From: a virus | Length of the DNA stretch: 12,261 nt | Strand: one strand, 5' to 3' | UHGV virus genome: UHGV-0361364 | In this document: piece after piece, positions 4,510 through 12,261 of the stretch | How positions within the stretch are numbered: the stretch's first letter is position 1 | Layout of the letters: the number at the start of each line of letters is the position of its first letter | Translations under genes and position numbers: made by a program | The notes under the pieces: model-generated | What the model saw: only the letters and a program-made list of their open reading frames with translations | Told to the model about the DNA's origin: nothing | The model's database searches: none

Positions 4510-5114
4510 TAAGCAGCAGCTCCTTCTAATTCGTCTCGTCTGATGTTGTAAACGTCCTGCGCTTTGTGCTGCTCCGGTGTGCCTTCGAGCATCTTCCACG
4601 CTTTGGCGAACGCCTGTTTAAGCTCTTCCACGGTGTTTTTCTGCAATGCTGCGTCAGTGAATGCTTTTAGAACCTGTTCAGGTGTAGGTGATGGTTTTGA
4701 TTGCTTTGCTGCTGCGTTCTGCTGATGTTTATGCTCGTCGGTATCTGCATCTTTCGCATCATCAATGCCGAACAAACCATTGAGGCAATACTTGCGTGCA
4801 TAAGAGCTTGTGGCTCCCGTAACTTGTGCAGAATCCATTCCTTTCTTGCTTTCTTCCTCTCGTGCAAGAGCGGTTGCCGTATGACTGTTTTCGCCATCGG
4901 TAATAGTTGCCGTGGCTTTCACATAATACCGATCACCAATCAACACAACTTCATCGCTGATTGATAAAAACAGGCCATTCAGTAACGGCTTAACGCCTTC
5001 AAGAATGTCTTCGCAGCTTCTGTATTTATATTTACCGAATGAGTTGTACTGATTCTTTGGCGCGTTCAGATTCTCCTGAATAGCTGCCAGTCTTGCGTAA
5101 AATTCTTTGCTCAT
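4509..5114 (-). CDS. erf: Erf-family single-strand annealing recombinase (P22 Erf-like)
   Basis: MSKEFYARLAAIQENLNAPKNQYNSFGKYKYRSCEDILEGVKP...DRYYVKATATITDGENSH matches the recalled P22 Erf N-terminal domain closely. Start taken as the first in-frame ATG at 5114; the ORF-track extension to 5144 begins with TTG. Confidence 0.85.
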   Translation of the reverse strand: MSKEFYARLAAIQENLNAPKNQYNSFGKYKYRSCEDILEGVKPLLNGLFLSISDEVVLIGDRYYVKATATITDGENSHTATALAREEESKKGMDSAQVTGATSSYARKYCLNGLFGIDDAKDADTDEHKHQQNAAAKQSKPSPTPEQVLKAFTDAALQKNTVEELKQAFAKAWKMLEGTPEQHKAQDVYNIRRDELEGAAA

Positions 5115-5215
5115 ATGATTGTTCTCAGAATGGACATGGCCCAAGGAAATAACGCTGATTTAATACTTCGACTCGGGACAAATTAAGGCATACCCGCATT
5201 CCTTCGCGGTCGCCA

Positions 5216-5374
5216 TTATGGCGATACCAGAGAGCTTTCTGTGTGTACATGCGTCTCTGTAACTTGCTCTCCTTCACTGTGGTTGCAAGTGACATGAATA
5301 TCTCCTTCGTTACCGATTAATTCTTTCATCTGACGAATGAATTCTTCGTCTGACCAGTTATCCGTAAAACTCAT
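5216..5374 (-). CDS. Small protein at the kil position, 52 aa (Kil-like by position only)
   Basis: ATG at 5374 overlaps the cIII stop (ATGA). It occupies the position where lambda and P22 carry kil, immediately downstream of cIII. No sequence-level family assignment is possible from memory. Confidence 0.45.
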   Translation of the reverse strand: MSFTDNWSDEEFIRQMKELIGNEGDIHVTCNHSEGEQVTETHVHTESSLVSP

Positions 5375-5541
5375 GGACGGCCTTGTTGTTTCAAAATATC
5401 CCAAAGCTTTTCGAGCAAACTTTTCATTCTTGGTTGTTTAAAGTCTGCTCCGGTTAAAATATTTTTTCGTGAATGCTGCACCGATAAAATTGGGTTGAAA
5501 GGGCGAACCGATGCCGCCCCTGCAATAGCGAACTGTTGCAT
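5371..5541 (-). CDS. cIII: CIII-like regulator (FtsH inhibitor that stabilises CII)
   Basis: 56-aa product MQQFAIAGAASVRPF...KSLLEKLWDILKQQGRP parallels lambda CIII (MQYAIAGW...ESLLERITRKLRDGWKRLIDILNQPG) in N-terminus and the central amphipathic helix. ATG at 5541 preceded by strong SD AAGGAG. Confidence 0.7.
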   Translation of the reverse strand: MQQFAIAGAASVRPFNPILSVQHSRKNILTGADFKQPRMKSLLEKLWDILKQQGRP

Positions 5542-5604
5542 AGGATGCTCCTTCTGTTTGATTGCATAACGAAAACGCCTCGAGTGAAGCGTTATTGGTA
5601 TGCA

Positions 5605-5631
5605 TATAAAAAGGCCCTCACATTGGAGGGC
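5605..5631 (-). terminator. Intrinsic terminator-like hairpin (minus strand) in the cIII leader
   Basis: Stem GCCCTC (5614-5619) / GAGGGC (5626-5631), 6-nt loop, followed on the minus strand by CUUUUUAUAU. Confidence 0.45.
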
Positions 5632-5749
5632 AAAGAAGATTTCCAATAATCAGAACAAGTCGGCTCCTGTTTAGTTACGAGCGACATTGCTCCGTGTATT
5701 CACTCGTTGGAATGAATACACAGTGCAGTGTTTATTCTGTTGTTAGTGC

Positions 5750-5776
5750 CAAAAATAAAGGCCGACTATGCGGCCT
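5750..5776 (-). terminator. Intrinsic terminator-like hairpin (minus strand) directly after the 207-aa gene
   Basis: Stem GGCCG (5760-5764) / CGGCC (5771-5775) with the TAG stop of ORF 5766-6389 in the loop, followed on the minus strand by UUUAUUUUU. Confidence 0.5.
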
Positions 5777-6389
5777 CGGAAGGAAGTCCAATCATCTTAT
5801 TCAAATCTTCTACCCGTAAAGCAGGAAGTGCTGTACTTGCTTTATCTGCTTCTTTTGGTAGCAATTCTTTGCTTTCAGGCCAAACTTCAATAAGTCGCTT
5901 AACTGTTGTTACTGAGTTCAAAGCAGCCCATACATTTGATTCGATATCCTTTTTCAAGGCTTCAAGGTTTTGTTGCAATGCGCAGATTTCATCAAACCTT
6001 TTTGTTATTTCGTGTTCTGCGTCAAACATGCATTTATCTTTGGTCGGAGTAGGGAGCAATATATCTTCGCCGTTGCCGTCTTTCCCATATGAATGCCATC
6101 CAACCCTTCTGCCAGATACAGTCAGATAAATTGAAGTAGAACGAACATCGTATGAATAAAATGAACATCCCATCTTTTCAAGTTCTTCACTTACAGCTAC
6201 CAACTTGGATGATAACTGATCCACTTCCTCAGTTTTCTTTTTACCGCCAAACGCAATAACTCTGGCGTCAAGTGCAAGCTGGTTCTTTAACTTTGTTACT
6301 TCTTCAAGTTCAGTGAAAACCCCAGACTTAATTAAAGCGTTACGAGCGATTTCCTCTTTCATTCTCGTAGTTAAGCGGATTGATGACAT
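5766..6389 (-). CDS. Hypothetical protein, 207 aa, predicted largely helical/coiled-coil; candidate accessory (moron) gene
   Basis: ATG at 6389 preceded by SD GAGAGGAA; the ORF-track start at 6404 is TTG. No family recognised. Lies between ral and cIII and is bracketed by terminator-like hairpins at 6405-6435 and 5750-5776. Confidence 0.65.
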   Translation of the reverse strand: MSSIRLTTRMKEEIARNALIKSGVFTELEEVTKLKNQLALDARVIAFGGKKKTEEVDQLSSKLVAVSEELEKMGCSFYSYDVRSTSIYLTVSGRRVGWHSYGKDGNGEDILLPTPTKDKCMFDAEHEITKRFDEICALQQNLEALKKDIESNVWAALNSVTTVKRLIEVWPESKELLPKEADKASTALPALRVEDLNKMIGLPSEAA

Positions 6390-6404
6390 ATTAATTCCTC
6401 TCAA

Positions 6405-6435
6405 ATAAGAAAATAAAGGCCACCATCAGGCAGCC
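6405..6435 (-). terminator. Strand-specific terminator-like hairpin (minus strand) overlapping the ral stop
   Basis: Minus-strand RNA GGCUGCC-UGAU-GGUGGCC forms 7 bp including two G-U pairs (these would be C-A mismatches in the plus-strand transcript), followed by UUUAUUUUCUUAUU. The ral TGA sits in the loop. Confidence 0.4.
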
Positions 6436-6626
6436 TTGTTGTTCAGTTTACCAAGTTCTCTGGCAATCATTGCCGTCGTTCGTATTGCCCATTTATCGAC
6501 ATATTTCCCATCTTCCATTACAGGAAACATTTCTTCAGGCTTAACCATGCATTCCGATTGCAGCTTGCATCCATTGCATCGCTTGAATTGTCCACACCAT
6601 TGATTTTTATCAATAGTCGTAGTCAT
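6426..6626 (-). CDS. ral: Ral-like restriction alleviation protein
   Basis: 66-aa Cys-containing product MTTTIDKNQWCGQFKRCNGCKLQSECMVKPEEMFPVMEDGKYVDKWAIRTTAMIARELGKLNNKAA matches my recollection of lambda Ral in length and sequence. Located between N and cIII as in lambda. Confidence 0.7.
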   Translation of the reverse strand: MTTTIDKNQWCGQFKRCNGCKLQSECMVKPEEMFPVMEDGKYVDKWAIRTTAMIARELGKLNNKAA

Positions 6627-6696
6627 ACGGATAGTCCTGGTATTGTTCCATCACATCCTGAGGATGCTCTTCGAACTCTTCAAATTCTTCTTCCAT
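6610..6696 (-). CDS. Putative 28-codon highly acidic ORF overlapping the ral start
   Basis: Hand translation from the ATG at 6696 gives MEEEFEEFEEHPQDVMEQYQDYPYDYDY then TGA. Strong SD GAGGTGA 5 nt upstream. Overlaps the ral ATG by 17 nt in another frame. Translation is unproven. Confidence 0.3.
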   Translation of the reverse strand: MEEEFEEFEEHPQDVMEQYQDYPYDYDY

Positions 6697-6806
6697 ATAT
6701 CACCTCAAATAAGTGGTTTGCTGCCTAATTTCATTTTCTGGCGACCAACACAAGTCACACCCATTTCACTGCGTGGCTTGCGGTAGTAAATTAGGTTTGT
6801 TCAGAC

Positions 6807-6830
6807 AATAAAAAACCCACCGAAGTGGGC
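6807..6830 (-). terminator. Intrinsic terminator (minus strand) after the 112-aa gene
   Basis: Stem CCCAC (6816-6820) / GTGGG (6825-6829) with a UUCG tetraloop on the minus strand, followed by UUUUUUAUU. The gene's TAG stop is at 6830-6832. Confidence 0.6.
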
Positions 6831-7168
6831 TATGACCATTTTTTATTTGGATTTCGTTGGTGAGCGTGATTAACAACTCTGTTCATTACATCCTCATATT
6901 TTTCATCTTCAATTTTTTCGACATCGCGAGGAAATGGTGTTGCTAATGCTTTGTCAACTTTGTCCATTGGGTCTTCATTAATCTTATATTCAGGGCCATC
7001 ATCTATAGCATTAAATCCAGGTGTTACACCGTTTTTTAATGCATATGCTATCCTTTTTTCCCATCTCGCTATTCTCCTCCTGTCTCGAGATGTAAGACCT
7101 CTATCAGATACTTTTCTGTTTTGTCCGCGGTCAGGATTAACATAAATAGTCTTTTTCACCATAAGCAT
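6830..7168 (-). CDS. Hypothetical basic hydrophilic protein, 112 aa, at the position lambda uses for sieB
   Basis: First ATG at 7168 lies 2 nt after the N stop (possible translational coupling; weak SD). A second ATG is at 7162. Product MLMVKKTIYVNPDRGQNRKVSDRGLTSRDRRRIARWEKRIAYALKNG... has an Arg-rich N-terminus and acidic C-terminal half, with no transmembrane segment, unlike SieB. Confidence 0.5.
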   Translation of the reverse strand: MLMVKKTIYVNPDRGQNRKVSDRGLTSRDRRRIARWEKRIAYALKNGVTPGFNAIDDGPEYKINEDPMDKVDKALATPFPRDVEKIEDEKYEDVMNRVVNHAHQRNPNKKWS

Positions 7169-7170
7169 AC

Positions 7171-7476
7171 TCAATAAGCACCGTACGGTAGTTTACTGTA
7201 CAATTTTATTTTTTGGACTGCATGTATTTTGTTTCCTAATGGGTTTGAATCTTTGTAATAAATACTTCTATTTTTTCGAACGACTTCTTCTTTCTTCTTG
7301 CAGCAAAGGCTTCCTAGCGATGCTGCTTTGTCTGCTCTGACGCAACCAGAGAGCTTTAGCGCAATTTTTCGCGCCAGTGCTTCATTACTGCGTCGCTCGG
7401 CAATAAGTTCTGCTCTGCGAGCTTTGTAGCGGCTTTTTGCCGTACCTTTGGATTCTTTCCAGACAATGGTTACCAT
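7171..7476 (-). CDS. N: N-type transcription antitermination protein (phage-21-like arginine-rich motif)
   Basis: ATG at 7476 preceded by strong SD AAGGAG. The N-terminal arginine-rich motif GTAKSRYKARRAELIAERR matches, as I recall it, the phage 21 N boxB-binding peptide. First gene of the leftward operon downstream of nutL. Confidence 0.8.
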   Translation of the reverse strand: MVTIVWKESKGTAKSRYKARRAELIAERRSNEALARKIALKLSGCVRADKAASLGSLCCKKKEEVVRKNRSIYYKDSNPLGNKIHAVQKIKLYSKLPYGAY

Positions 7477-7586
7477 GATGGTCTCCTTTAAGTGGCTTTG
7501 GCGCATGACGCGTCGAGGTGCTTATCTTCTCGATCGCTGTCTTGCAGCTGCAATTCGCGCCATCCCCAAAACCACTCAAGTTCTGG

Positions 7587-7627
7587 TCTCAACGGTTAGG
7601 TTGAGAGTCCGTCGATGTTAAAGAGCC
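7587..7627 (-). promoter_or_regulatory. nutL: nutL: boxA-like GGCUCUUUAACA (7616-7627) followed 9 nt later by a boxB-like hairpin with CUAACC loop (7587-7606)
   Basis: Minus-strand reading: GGCTCTTTAACA matches the boxA core GCTCTTTAACA, then stem TCTCAAC / GTTGAGA around loop CTAACC. The loop and spacing are the same as in the nutR candidate while the stems differ. Confidence 0.6.
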
Positions 7628-7673
7628 TGCCAATCTGTTCCGTTTGGCTTCCAGCGTCCTGCTGATGGCTTAA

Positions 7674-9313: not shown

Positions 9314-10121
9314 GTTAGCTGATTACAGGCCTCAACTGGAGGTCGTGGAGCATCGCGTGGCAGATACCGAAGATGGTTTCATGCGCGTTGCTAACGAGAT
9401 TACCGACAGTCTGCTGATGGCTGATTTAACCGTCCGGCAGTTGAAGGTGATGCTCGCTATCATGCGCAAGACATACGGATTCAATAAGCCGATGGATCGA
9501 CTCACAAACACGCAGATAGCAGCCATGACAGGTATTCATCACACTCATGTTTGCGCTGCCAAGCGCCAGCTTATTGAGCGTAAATTCCTCATTGCTGATG
9601 GCGTGAAAATCGGAGTGAACAAGGTGGTTTCTCAGTGGATTAGCCAGGACAGCTTAACATTAGCTAAAACAGCTAATAAAACATTAGCCAAGTCGGCTAA
9701 TGGGTATAAGCCAAGTCAGCTAAACACAAAAGACAATATACAAAAGACAATAAATACAAATACCCCCTTACCCCCTAACGGGGGCGGCGATGGGCAGGTT
9801 AAACCTGAACGTCGCAAGGCAGAACGAATCGACTACGAATCCTTCCTGAACGCCTACAACACCGAAGTCGGTGACAGACTGCCACACGCTGTTGCGGTCA
9901 ACGAGAAACGCAAACGCCGCCTGAAGAAAATCATCCCACAACTGAAAACGCCAAACGTGGACGGTTTCAGAGCGTATGTCAGGGCGTTTGTGCATCAGGC
10001 CAAGCCGTTTTACTTCGGAGACAACGACACTGGCTGGACGGCAGATTTTGATTACCTGCTGAGGGAAGATTCGTTAACGGGAGTACGGGAAGGGAAGTTT
10101 GCAGACAGGGGGATTGCATGA
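9300..10121 (+). CDS. O: Replication initiator protein, lambda O / P22 gp18 family
   Basis: N-terminal region ([15 protein letters not shown]...[32 protein letters not shown]) parallels lambda O (VADLDDGYARLSN...LTKRQFKVLLAILRKTYGWNKPMDRITDSQLS). Contains the iteron origin internally. The stop overlaps the helicase start (ATGA). Confidence 0.9.
9640..9765. repeat. ori: Replication origin inside the O-like gene: four 17-18 bp iterons with internal dyad symmetry plus an AT-rich tract
   Basis: TTAGCCAGGACAGCTTAA (9640-9657), TTAGCTAAAACAGCTAA (9660-9676), TTAGCCAAGTCGGCTAA (9684-9700), TAAGCCAAGTCAGCTAA (9707-9723), about 20-24 bp apart, then an A-rich stretch 9724-9765 (ACACAAAAGACAATATACAAAAGACAATAAATACAAATA). 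Same architecture as ori-lambda. Confidence 0.8.
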
Positions 10122-11494
10122 GACAGGATATCGAAGCGAGCGTTATCGGTGGCCTGCTGATTGGTGGATTAACTCCAACCGCCAGTGACGTTCTTGCAAC
10201 GCTGGAGCCGGAAGCGTTTTCAATTCCGCTCTACCGGAAAGCCTTCGAGGTTATCCGCAAGCAGGCGCGAAACAGAAACCTAATCGACGCGCTGATGGTT
10301 GCCGAGGCGTGCGGAGAGGAGCATTTCACGTCAATCCTGATGACCAGCAAAAACTGCCCGAGCGCCGCAAACCTGAAGGGATATGCCGGAATGGTCGCGG
10401 ATAACTATCACCGCCGTCTGGTGCTGGAAATCATGGATGAAATGCGTGAACCAATTCAGAGCGGAACCATCGATACATCGAGTCAGGCGATGGACGAGCT
10501 TGTAAAGCGTCTTTCAGCCATCAGAAAGCCCCGTGACGAGGTTAAACCTGTACGGTTAGGGGAAATCATCACTGACTACACTGACACGCTTGACAGGCGT
10601 CTGAGGAACGGAGAAGAGTCAGATACCCTGAAGACCGGAATCGAAGAACTTGATGTCATCACCGGAGGGATGAACGCGGAAGACCTGGTGATTATCGCCG
10701 CTCGTCCTGGTATGGGGAAAACCGAGCTGGCGCTGAAGATTGCCGAAGGCGTTGCAAGCCGCGTTATCCCTGGTTCTGACGTTCGGCGCGGAGTGTTGAT
10801 TTTCTCGATGGAAATGAGCGCATTGCAGATTGCAGAGCGAAGCATCGCCAACGCCGGGAGGATGTCGGTTAGCGTACTGCGAAATCCTGCATCGATGGAT
10901 GACGAGGGCTGGGCACGTGTTGCTAAAGGCATGAGTCAGCTTGCAGATTTGGATGTATGGGTAGTCGATGCCTCGCGGTTATCGGTCGAAGAAATTCGCT
11001 CAATCGCAGAACGGCACAAACAGGAAAATCCAAACCTGTCACTCATCATGGCAGATTATCTTGGCCTGATTGAGAAGCCGAAAGCAGACCGCAACGACCT
11101 CGCAATTGCTCACATCTCAGGAAGCCTGAAGGCGATGGCGAAAGACCTGAAAACACCGGTTATCTCCCTGAGTCAGCTTTCGCGCGATGTTGAGAAGCGA
11201 CCAAACAAACGCCCGACAAACGCAGATTTGCGTGATTCAGGAAGCATTGAACAGGACGCAGACTCAATCATCATGCTCTATCGGGAAGCGGTATATGACG
11301 AGAACAGTAGCGCCGCGCCATTTGCTGAAATCATCGTGACAAAAAACCGTTTTGGCTCGCTTGGTACGGTTTACCAGCGGTTCTGCAACGGACACTTTGT
11401 TGCATGTGACCAGGATGAAGCCAGACAGATTTGCACAGCATCAAATGCACCTGCTGCGCGTGGCAGACGATATGCACAAGGGGCTGACGTATGA
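10118..11494 (+). CDS. Replicative DNA helicase, DnaB family (P22 gp12-like)
   Basis: 458-aa product with an N-terminal DnaB-like domain and a RecA-fold ATPase domain. Walker A reads [16 protein letters not shown], and a DnaB-type C-terminal arginine region is present. Translationally coupled to O. Confidence 0.9.
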
Positions 11495-11551: not shown

Positions 11552-12261
11552 TGCACAGAAAACCCCCAGCTAGGCTGGGGGTTCCGGAAAGCTTTCAGCT
11601 TTGAGCCAGTTATTAAAACCCCTTTTGATTTGTTAAAACACCTTGCGGTCTGGCAACTGCAAGTGTCAAACAAGAAATCAAAAGGGGGTCCCAATGGGGA
11701 ACGAAAAGAGCTTAGCGCACACCCGATGGAACTGTAAATATCACATAGTTTTTGCGCCAAAATACCGAAGACAAGTGTTCTACAGAGAGAAGCGTAGAGC
11801 AATAGGCAGTATTTTGAGAAAGCTGTGTGAGTGGAAAAGCGTACGGATTCTGGAAGCAGAGTGCTGCGCAGATCATATCCATATGCTTGTGGAAATCCCA
11901 CCCAAAATGAGCGTATCCGGCTTTATGGGATATCTGAAAGGGAAAAGCAGTCTGATGCTTTACGAGCAGTTTGGTGATTTGAAATTCAAATACAGGAACA
12001 GAGAGTTCTGGTGCAGAGGGTACTACGTCGATACGGTGGGTAAGAACACGGCGAAGATACAGGATTACATAAAGCACCAGCTTGAAGAGGATAAAATGGG
12101 AGAGCAGTTATCGATTCCCTATCCGGGCAGCCCGTTTACGGGCCGTAAGTAACGAAGTTGGATGCAAATGTCAGATCGTGTGCGCCTGTTAGGGCGCGGC
12201 TGGTAAGAGAGCCTTATAGGCGCATTTGAAAAACCTCCGGCTATGCCGGAGGATATTTATT
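11552..12261 (+). mobile_element. IS200-family insertion sequence (IS200/IS605 group, single Y1 transposase, no terminal inverted repeats); boundaries approximate, right end at or near the window edge
   Basis: Contains tnpA plus the structures recalled for IS200: left-end hairpin CCCCCAG / CTGGGGG (11563-11581); a long-range pairing CCCCTTTTG (11619-11627) with CAAAAGGGG (11679-11687) that sequesters the tnpA SD; right-end hairpin CCTCCGGC-TAT-GCCGGAGG (12234-12252) followed by ATATTTATT. Span of about 707 bp fits IS200. Confidence 0.7.
11694..12152 (+). CDS. tnpA: IS200 transposase TnpA (HUH / Y1 single-strand transposase)
   Basis: 152-aa product MGNEKSLAHTRWNCKYHIVFAPKYRRQVF...ADHIHMLVEIPPK...RGYYVDTVGKNT carries the HxH (HIH) motif and catalytic Tyr region, and closely matches recalled IS200 TnpA. 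Start at the ATG at 11694 after SD AAAGGGGG; the ORF-track upstream extension was rejected. Confidence 0.9.
   Translation: MGNEKSLAHTRWNCKYHIVFAPKYRRQVFYREKRRAIGSILRKLCEWKSVRILEAECCADHIHMLVEIPPKMSVSGFMGYLKGKSSLMLYEQFGDLKFKYRNREFWCRGYYVDTVGKNTAKIQDYIKHQLEEDKMGEQLSIPYPGSPFTGRK

Follow-up and report, generated by a model that had tools for sequence, protein, structure and literature searches.

The virus genome UHGV-0361364, of which a stretch of 12,261 nucleotides (the window) was analysed here, carries between the early-left genes ral and cIII a gene for a 207-amino-acid (aa) protein that almost certainly belongs to the Nmad5 family. The best explanation that we can offer, and we offer it tentatively, is that this is a dispensable, non-catalytic early accessory protein of phage DNA metabolism (replication or recombination). 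The protein matched Pfam family PF18757 (Nmad5, 'nucleotide modification associated domain 5') over its full length, residues 4-203 aligning with model positions 1-206 of 206 (E 1e-70; 238.4 bits against a cut-off of 27), as well as PHROG 1965 (E 3.7e-83), which is annotated as 'unknown function'. RefSeq names the database homologues 'Nmad5 family putative nucleotide modification protein'. An earlier note on this DNA had stated that the protein matches no family, which is therefore wrong.

Alignments of 150 and of 110 members (median identity about 30%) showed all residues conserved across the family to be present in the window protein, and with 207 aa it is a stand-alone single-domain protein like nearly all of the best 150 representatives (about 190-230 aa). 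A profile search of 1.84 billion representatives recovered 2,299 clusters (at 50% identity) with E <= 1e-3 and 698 with E <= 1e-10. No domain fusions were seen, PF18757 standing alone on all 120 listed hits of 130 and being unfused in the best 150 representatives, and no second Pfam family recurred, even weakly, among 110 members. No NCBIfam model matched the protein, and a search with the PADLOC defence models returned no family at E <= 1. Given the full-length match to PF18757 and the 98% DNA identity of positions 5300-6409 to phage HK542 (gene, terminator and spacer) and to mEp235, the sequence is not new: the gene is already catalogued, with near-identical copies in sequenced phages. The HK542 copy is gp33 (YP_007151768), a 'hypothetical protein' encoded directly after N. 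The genes of HK542 and mEp235 are in substance the same as the one described here, which is set apart locally only by the junction with ral at its 5' end. The gene is also present in PhiR12 phages, in Kapi1 and in many Stx1/Stx2 phages, the Stx phages too having copies of 98% DNA identity, and under the Nmad5 name the cassette occurs in 211 of 5,426 complete Escherichia coli genomes (3.9%); a scan of a genome collection with a narrow family alignment returned four loci. Carriers of the family at large include phages of Enterobacteria, Pseudomonas, Vibrio, Aeromonas, Bordetella, Acinetobacter and cyanobacteria, virulent phages among them, and the C-terminal motif is almost invariant across this host range.

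The open reading frame (ORF) on the minus strand (5766..6404) opens at a TTG, and the ATG at 6389 gives the 207-aa product, whose N-terminus MSSIRLT is the common start of all homologues. As the earlier note had said, the gene has its own Shine-Dalgarno sequence; it is GAGG at 6400-6397 with a 7-nt spacer, and this GAGG is identical in nearly all of 81 related loci, one of which has a G-to-T change just 3' of it. Across 62 distinct alleles the median ratio of nonsynonymous to synonymous substitution rates (dN/dS) is 0.30, and the gene is under purifying selection; 69 of the 207 positions vary among these alleles, with the changes concentrated at residues 58-145 and residues 146-205 almost invariant. 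Internal stops were found in three of the 62 alleles, and three copies of the gene (among loci L002-L081) carry a G48C substitution where 97% of the whole family has Gly, which together suggests gene decay in some prophages. An ORF on the opposite strand (5728-6129, 133 aa; 120-133 aa) overlaps the gene and could be taken to mean that the 207-aa frame is non-functional or that the true gene lies antisense. We give this reading practically no credence, for the sense frame combines the dN/dS of 0.30 with a strong family match and a confidently predicted fold, whereas the antisense ORF shifts in frame and in length (52-212 aa) among homologues and follows GC content, so that it was rejected as a real gene.

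AlphaFold2 models of the protein reached a predicted local distance difference test score (pLDDT) of 86.2 and a predicted template modelling score (pTM) of 0.71 with 30 sequences, and a pLDDT of 92.6 and a pTM of 0.83 with 110 sequences. They agree with the suggestion, made beforehand from the letters, of a mostly helical protein with a Gly-rich centre: three long N-terminal helices (8-22, 24-46 and 50-72) are predicted, then a small beta sub-domain (about 86-122) that holds the Gly-rich loop (GWHSYGKDGNGED, residues 97-109), and a C-terminal half made of a 32-residue helix (127-158), a compact short-helix module (163-176), a flexible linker (185-189) and a last helix (194-200). As read from DSSP strings rather than from coordinates, positions 5 and 162 are isolated beta-bridge residues, which suggests that the conserved N-terminus packs against the C-terminal module. 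At a median identity of 30% the conserved positions are R5, L6, I14, A18, K21, G23, R43, G48, G49 and G93, then T162, K164, L166, W170, P171, E172, E175, L176 and P178, and finally L188, P189, L196, N197, G201, L202 and P203; conservation thus resides mainly in the C-terminal module, and otherwise in the N-terminus and a single Gly-Gly loop.

Profile and structure searches had been proposed in the earlier note, and the former led to Nmad5. All structure searches used the first AlphaFold2 model (pLDDT 86.2). Foldseek against the Protein Data Bank (PDB) gave nothing below E 0.4, a PDB sequence search and a 110-member profile search gave nothing below E 0.025, and nearly all matches in BFVD were other Nmad5-family or unnamed phage proteins, with no characterised family among them. 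By these searches, no solved structure is related to the predicted fold, which is unlike that of any known enzyme. Among the conserved positions, no grouping of His, Cys and Asp of the kind usual in metal or cofactor sites is seen, and we lean towards a non-enzymatic protein. A DNA mimic and a strongly basic DNA binder were both rejected, as the family's isoelectric points (pI) range from 5.0 to 9.8, which fits neither. A helix-turn-helix (HTH) reading of SVTTVKRLIEVWPE (SVTTVKRLI) was not supported by profile comparison; family residues 126-207 aligned by hhalign with the Xis, Cro, cII and c2 N-terminal domain of the window at probabilities of at most 1.8%, and no HTH Pfam family recurred among 110 members.

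The genomic context of distant relatives was examined in 15 genomes, which with the lambdoid phages cover about eleven lineages, and in 13 of the 15 the gene lay among replication, recombination or nucleotide-metabolism genes. It is found immediately upstream of DNA polymerase A (PolA) in Acinetobacter phage Scuro and in contig L103, after a helicase in ECO1230-10, after a helicase/primase in eiAU-183, and between RecE and a replication initiator in Vibrio PvVp04. Three N4-like genomes share the order PolA-HNH-DUF6378-ThyX-Nmad5-x-primase-AAA_24, with HNH and DUF6378 called in the two metagenome contigs, and in contigs L097 and L099 a DEDD exonuclease follows Nmad5 near PolA. One of these two has the order UvrD-PolA-...-Nmad5-RNaseT-like-PurZ-MazZ-DatZ-type genes, a Z-genome-type cassette; in Yuavirus the gene stands beside a hydroxymethylase, a hypermodification cassette and PolA; and two Aeromonas-type prophage operons read DUF4406-Nmad5-x-DNA methyltransferases, up to int, with a single-stranded DNA-binding protein (SSB) in one of the two. 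In these two operons (L096 and L098, 4660-5615) DUF4406 lies immediately before Nmad5, with overlapping reading frames, and the methyltransferases are Dam plus C5, or MT-A70. DUF4406, methyltransferase and DEDD exonuclease genes may be recurrent partners of Nmad5. The two exceptions, in which the gene stands among head genes, are Dhillonvirus and contig L101. Base-modifying neighbours are present in a minority of cases, and the name Nmad5 looks misleading, as the neighbourhoods point to phage DNA replication and not to base modification.

The only published phenotype of an Nmad5 protein is the escape of Dhillonvirus from Tmn defence. Escape mutants selected by Yamashita and colleagues all carried nmad5 K216E (PhiSMA8) or the equivalent K296E (PhiSMS22); reverting the mutation restored Tmn sensitivity, introducing it gave escape, and deleting nmad5 did not (Yamashita et al., 2025; PMC11846954). 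Wild-type nmad5 could not be cloned and was apparently toxic, and the authors suggest a gain of function (PMC11846954). K216 aligns with R165 of the window protein, inside the family's best-conserved motif, T-x-K-[RK]-L-I-x-x-W-P-E; this equivalence is inferred, because the numbering was transferred through the 254-aa proteins of sister phages SM_A2 and KS_S9 from the same laboratory and not from SMA8 itself. Dhillonvirus Nmad5 belongs to the same family (E 4e-43 to PF18757) and has the same C-terminal motif, but shares only about 30% identity with the window protein, in the C-terminal half alone, is 254 aa long (about 334 aa if an N-terminal extension is counted), contains a far larger beta insert, and is encoded by a lone opposite-strand gene among the head genes of a virulent phage. 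From the alignment, the conserved Nmad5 surface coincides with the escape site, and Tmn appears to read out this surface in Dhillonvirus. According to a 2026 preprint, T2 RIIB directly activates a Tmn homologue; RIIB is described there as an early factor by which the replisome is anchored to the membrane (PMC13001434). RIIB of T2/T4 and Nmad5 are alike in being early phage proteins genetically implicated in Tmn sensing, the former replisome-associated by description and the latter encoded in replication modules, which agrees with the context analysis. RIIB differs in having 312 aa, an N-terminal HTH and a membrane association, and its loss of function leads to Tmn escape, whereas nmad5 deletion does not; homology between Nmad5 and T4 RIIB was ruled out (hhalign probability 0.4%).

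If Nmad5 has no catalysis of its own, it would act by binding through its conserved surface, made up of the N-terminus (R5, L6), the G48-G49 loop and the C-terminal T162-x-K-R-L-x3-W-P-E ... L-N-x2-I-G-L-P module, elements that would be adjacent in space to judge from the DSSP strings. What it binds could be DNA or else a conserved protein of replication or repair, and in lambdoid phages the protein would give a non-essential advantage in lytic DNA metabolism. Several points weigh against this explanation. The neighbourhood evidence is circumstantial, with Dhillonvirus and contig L101 carrying the gene among head genes and several relatives adjoining base-modifying or DNA-methylating genes; the basic, acidic and Gly-Gly residues that are conserved might together make a small-ligand site invisible to structure search; the spread of pI is unlike that of a dedicated DNA binder; deletion of nmad5 in Dhillonvirus left Tmn sensitivity unchanged, so that Nmad5 is not the sole trigger (PMC11846954); and the adjacency of ral, the patchy spread and the natural knock-outs fit counter-defence at least as well.

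The mobility of the gene was assessed by comparing the 81 related loci, in all of which it is at least 94% identical. Homology to the window ended at 6409, 20 nt before the ATG, in 69 of the 81 loci, and its downstream limit fell between 5747 and 5518, so that the portable unit consists of the Shine-Dalgarno sequence, the gene and its 3' terminator. At least 15 unrelated upstream and at least 16 downstream flank types were found, the pattern of an accessory mosaic gene. The same cassette occurred with three N types and two cIII types, and with Erf in 18 loci, Red in 7 and neither recombinase in 41, which rules out a dedicated cofactor of one recombinase; the cassette recombines freely among lambdoid phages. 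In 48 records of Stx2a-converting phages an IS3-family insertion sequence (IS) element interrupts the gene after about codon 36, and these copies are natural knock-outs. In one of them (Stx2_716; L107, 1029-3025) the IS orfA/orfB lie on the opposite strand (1238-2451) and an ea10 homologue comes after the split gene. With its presence in 3.9% of E. coli genomes, mosaic flanks, IS splits and internal stops, the Nmad5 gene is accessory, and in lambdoid phages it is dispensable.

The slot is indeed the variable early-left accessory region that it had been taken for: annotations place ea10 between ral and cIII in lambda, and orf78, orf87 and gene 17 in P22, the last annotated as 'allows growth on phage Fels2 lysogen', and no housekeeping protein was found to hold the place in most lambdoid phages. 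Lambda ea10 and P22 gene 17 share slot, orientation and dependence on PL and N with the Nmad5 gene, but homology of either product to Nmad5 was ruled out (hhalign probability 0.2% each). Homologues of ea10 co-occur with the Nmad5 cassette in 13 of 80 loci and those of gp17 in 4 of 80, so that they are not alternatives to Nmad5.

Features of the window around the Nmad5 gene (positions in nucleotides of the window)
Feature	Position	Strand	Details	Basis
207-aa Nmad5-family coding sequence	5766..6389	minus	23.1 kDa, pI 5.6	ORF, Pfam, PHROG, dN/dS, AlphaFold2
Shine-Dalgarno sequence GAGG	6397..6400	minus	spacer to ATG 7 nt	sequence read
Mobile cassette (Shine-Dalgarno sequence, gene, own terminator)	5748..6409	minus	no promoter	homology breakpoints
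Intrinsic-terminator-like hairpin after ral	6406..6437	minus	stem 6437-6416, 9 pairs, U-rich tail UAUUUUCUUA to 6406	
Intrinsic-terminator-like hairpin at gene 3' end	5748..5777	minus	stem 5777-5758, 7 pairs, U-run 5757-5748	
Perfect 14-bp hairpin, no U-run	5692..5723	minus	CUGUGUAUUCAUUC/GAGUGAAUACACGG, gene-cIII spacer	
Two more terminator-like hairpins before cIII	5631-5614, 5593-5574	minus	z-scores -3.4 and -2.9	
ral (antirestriction), upstream neighbour	6426..6626	minus		Pfam PF11058, E 2e-48
cIII, downstream neighbour	5371..5541	minus	annotated CIII in HK542	PHROG 550, E 1e-22
Nun-like transcription-termination (exclusion) gene	6830-7174	minus		PHROG 5632, E 6e-70
N-like antiterminator gene	7171-7506	minus		
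nutL-like site: boxA-like GCTCTTTAACA and boxB-like hairpin TCTCAACCTAACCGTTGAGA	~7631-7587	minus		
PL-like promoter AAGACA-17-TAAAAT	7752-7724	minus	amid P22-type operator-like repeats, next to P22-type repressor gene	

The Pfam and PHROG matches of the two neighbours confirm the position of the gene between ral and cIII. The hairpins with U-runs that had been described on both of its sides are present within 1-2 nt of where they had been placed, although only the 3' one belongs to the gene. This gene-end hairpin (folding free energy, dG, -11.0 kcal/mol; z-score only -1.5) has the tail UAUUUUU, overlaps the TAG stop codon and is kept together with the gene in almost all of the 81 loci. The hairpin after ral (dG -14.6 kcal/mol, z -3.2) precedes the gene in only about 13 of the 81, those that carry ral, most of the loci having other, weakly structured sequence in its place, and for this reason it is the 3' end of the ral module and not part of the unit of the 207-aa gene. 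P22 gene 17, in the same slot, likewise has an annotated terminator at the same position, overlapping its 3' end and stop codon, so that a terminator closing a gene between ral and cIII is not special to the 207-aa gene. Positions 5000-7600 held seven terminator-like sites (2.0 +/- 1.3 in shuffled sequences) and, on both strands, no sigma-70-like promoter (5.0 +/- 2.1 in shuffles); this part of the early-left operon looks depleted of internal promoters and rich in terminators. The Nmad5 gene lies behind the PL-like promoter, the nutL-like site, the N-like gene and at least two terminator-like hairpins. As the cassette is promoter-less and the upstream hairpin belongs to ral, its expression should depend on PL and N antitermination; early expression is very probably N-dependent, and the protein would be made only in lytic growth or on induction, from N-antiterminated PL transcripts.

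Further observations concern the same operon. The perfect hairpin in the 225-nt spacer between the gene and cIII (dG -19.7 kcal/mol, z -6.7; none of 200 shuffles folded equally well) lies about 25 nt past the terminator of the gene, is covered by window homology in about 59 of the 81 loci, as estimated from breakpoints, and could serve in RNA processing or belong to the cIII leader. A putative ORF of 31 aa (MSLVTKQEPTCSDYWKSSLPSNVRAFLYAYQ; 5592-5687, minus strand), with GGAG just upstream, also lies in this spacer and had no PHROG match, and a search of 5300-6700 with Rfam returned no RNA family except a chance-level match to the ToxT thermometer. We take the elements at 7587-7631 to be boxA and boxB from what is generally known of lambdoid nut sites, and the N-terminus of the N-like protein carries GTAKSRYKARRAELIAERR, an arginine-rich motif of the phage 21 type. 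To judge by its operator-like repeats and repressor on the one hand and its boxA/boxB and N motif types on the other, the window pairs a c2 repressor gene like that of P22 with an N/nut system like that of phage 21. The Nun-like gene, which overlaps the end of the N-like gene by 4 nt, was found in only 7 of 80 related loci, and a tandem of N and Nun-like genes in one PL operon is unusual. Downstream come two small ORFs of PHROG 'recombinase' type, then Erf, SSB and Abc2. Elsewhere in the window, an IS200 copy (11561-12152, plus strand) lies just after the DnaB-like helicase gene (10118-11494); Rfam STnc490 matched at 11561-11684 (146 bits, E 1e-30), and a 169-aa ORF at 11643-12152 appears to be the IS200 transposase.

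Among the other roles that can be considered, the family name itself, in Pfam and RefSeq, speaks for a factor of nucleotide or DNA modification, be it as the enzyme that modifies bases of phage DNA or as a subunit that confers specificity or targeting, and so do the relatives that adjoin the 5-hydroxymethyldeoxyuridine (5-hmdU) hypermodification cassette of M6-like phages, the PurZ/MazZ/DatZ-type genes or the Dam, C5 and MT-A70 methyltransferases. The neighbour here, ral, is annotated as antirestriction or restriction alleviation, and Ral acts by hyperactivating a methyltransferase, according to a preprint. Nevertheless, we consider such a role improbable: the window contains no modification genes, the complete HK542 genome has no recognisable hypermodification cassette (two glycosyltransferase genes are annotated, with no target assigned), the searches revealed neither a known enzyme fold nor a cofactor motif nor a domain fusion, and most neighbourhoods consist of replication genes without modification enzymes. 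Nmad5 of the M6/SN1-like Pseudomonas phages (Yuavirus) is of the same family, its C-terminal 87 residues being 30-44% identical, but is linked to genes for 5-hmdU kinase, aGPT-Pplase, radical S-adenosylmethionine (rSAM) and pyridoxal phosphate (PLP) proteins, of which the window has none. Judging by the gene order of the related phage SN1, the Nmad5 gene of M6 would lie outside gp51-gp55, to which the lysate experiments on thymidine hypermodification (5-NedU) were restricted; each enzymatic step was reconstituted from pure recombinant enzymes, and the description of that reconstitution lists no further protein (PMC8989533). The association with modification genes on which the family was named is contextual and not a sequence criterion, so that membership of Nmad5 stands even though the window has no such gene.

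Counter-defence, in which an early protein neutralises a defence component of the host or of a prophage, or a host nuclease, as do Ral, Abc2 and P22 gp17, is a possible role, although we think it the less likely one when set beside a function in DNA metabolism. The gene shares its accessory region with ral, immediately upstream, and with abc2, further along the operon; gene 17 of P22, in the same slot, carries its Fels-2 annotation; the distribution is mosaic and patchy and the gene dispensable; at a dN/dS of 0.30 the changes cluster in the beta sub-domain, which leaves room for partner-driven variation; and one substitution in Dhillonvirus, but not deletion, gives Tmn escape, with a gain of function suggested by its authors. 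Set against this are the many host genera that the family spans, its near-invariant C-terminal motif and its syntenic place in the replication modules of virulent phages; known anti-defence proteins are, to our knowledge, usually narrower in spread. Moreover, the gene is absent from the 200 accessory genes screened by Silas et al., and no profile link to a characterised anti-defence protein emerged from the hhalign comparisons with P22 gp17 and lambda Ea10, to which Nmad5 is unrelated. Identity with orf184, the ral-region trigger of gop-beta-cII in Silas et al., was rejected, since orf184 is another protein, about 107 aa long, and is not encoded in the window. A function in DNA metabolism and counter-defence may overlap, for example if the protein guards the replisome or replicating DNA against a host factor. 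A defence or superinfection-exclusion gene expressed in the lysogen is another matter. The earlier note had put the gene forward as a candidate for an undescribed host-interaction, defence or anti-defence function, and of these defence is unlikely. It would find parallels in sieB, near N in lambda and P22, and in the Nun-like exclusion gene 440 bp upstream in the window, but dependence on PL and N argues against it, as do the lack of promoter-like sites in and near the cassette, the orientation of the gene with PL and behind terminators in a repressed operon, the lack of a PADLOC match, the presence of the family in strictly virulent phages and the apparent toxicity of the Dhillonvirus homologue, which could not be cloned. 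We regard this role as very improbable and largely refuted.

The interest of the gene lies in the Nmad5 family and not in this copy. This large family comprises about 2,300 clusters at 50% identity; its members are proteins of about 200 aa with an orphan fold and no sign of catalysis, it is probably misnamed, and its single genetic phenotype, Tmn escape, maps to its most conserved motif. HK542 and mEp235, as sequenced E. coli lambdoid phages with a clean promoter-less cassette, are convenient for finding the function of the family. A bolder proposal, which we put forward as speculation, is that a widespread non-enzymatic Nmad5 docks on a replication or repair component of host or phage, that its T-x-K-R-L...WPE surface is monitored by membrane nucleoside triphosphatases (NTPases) of the Tmn type, and that the lambdoid cassette is a host-takeover or counter-defence module. 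If this were true, the presence or absence of the cassette would change which defence systems a prophage triggers or escapes.

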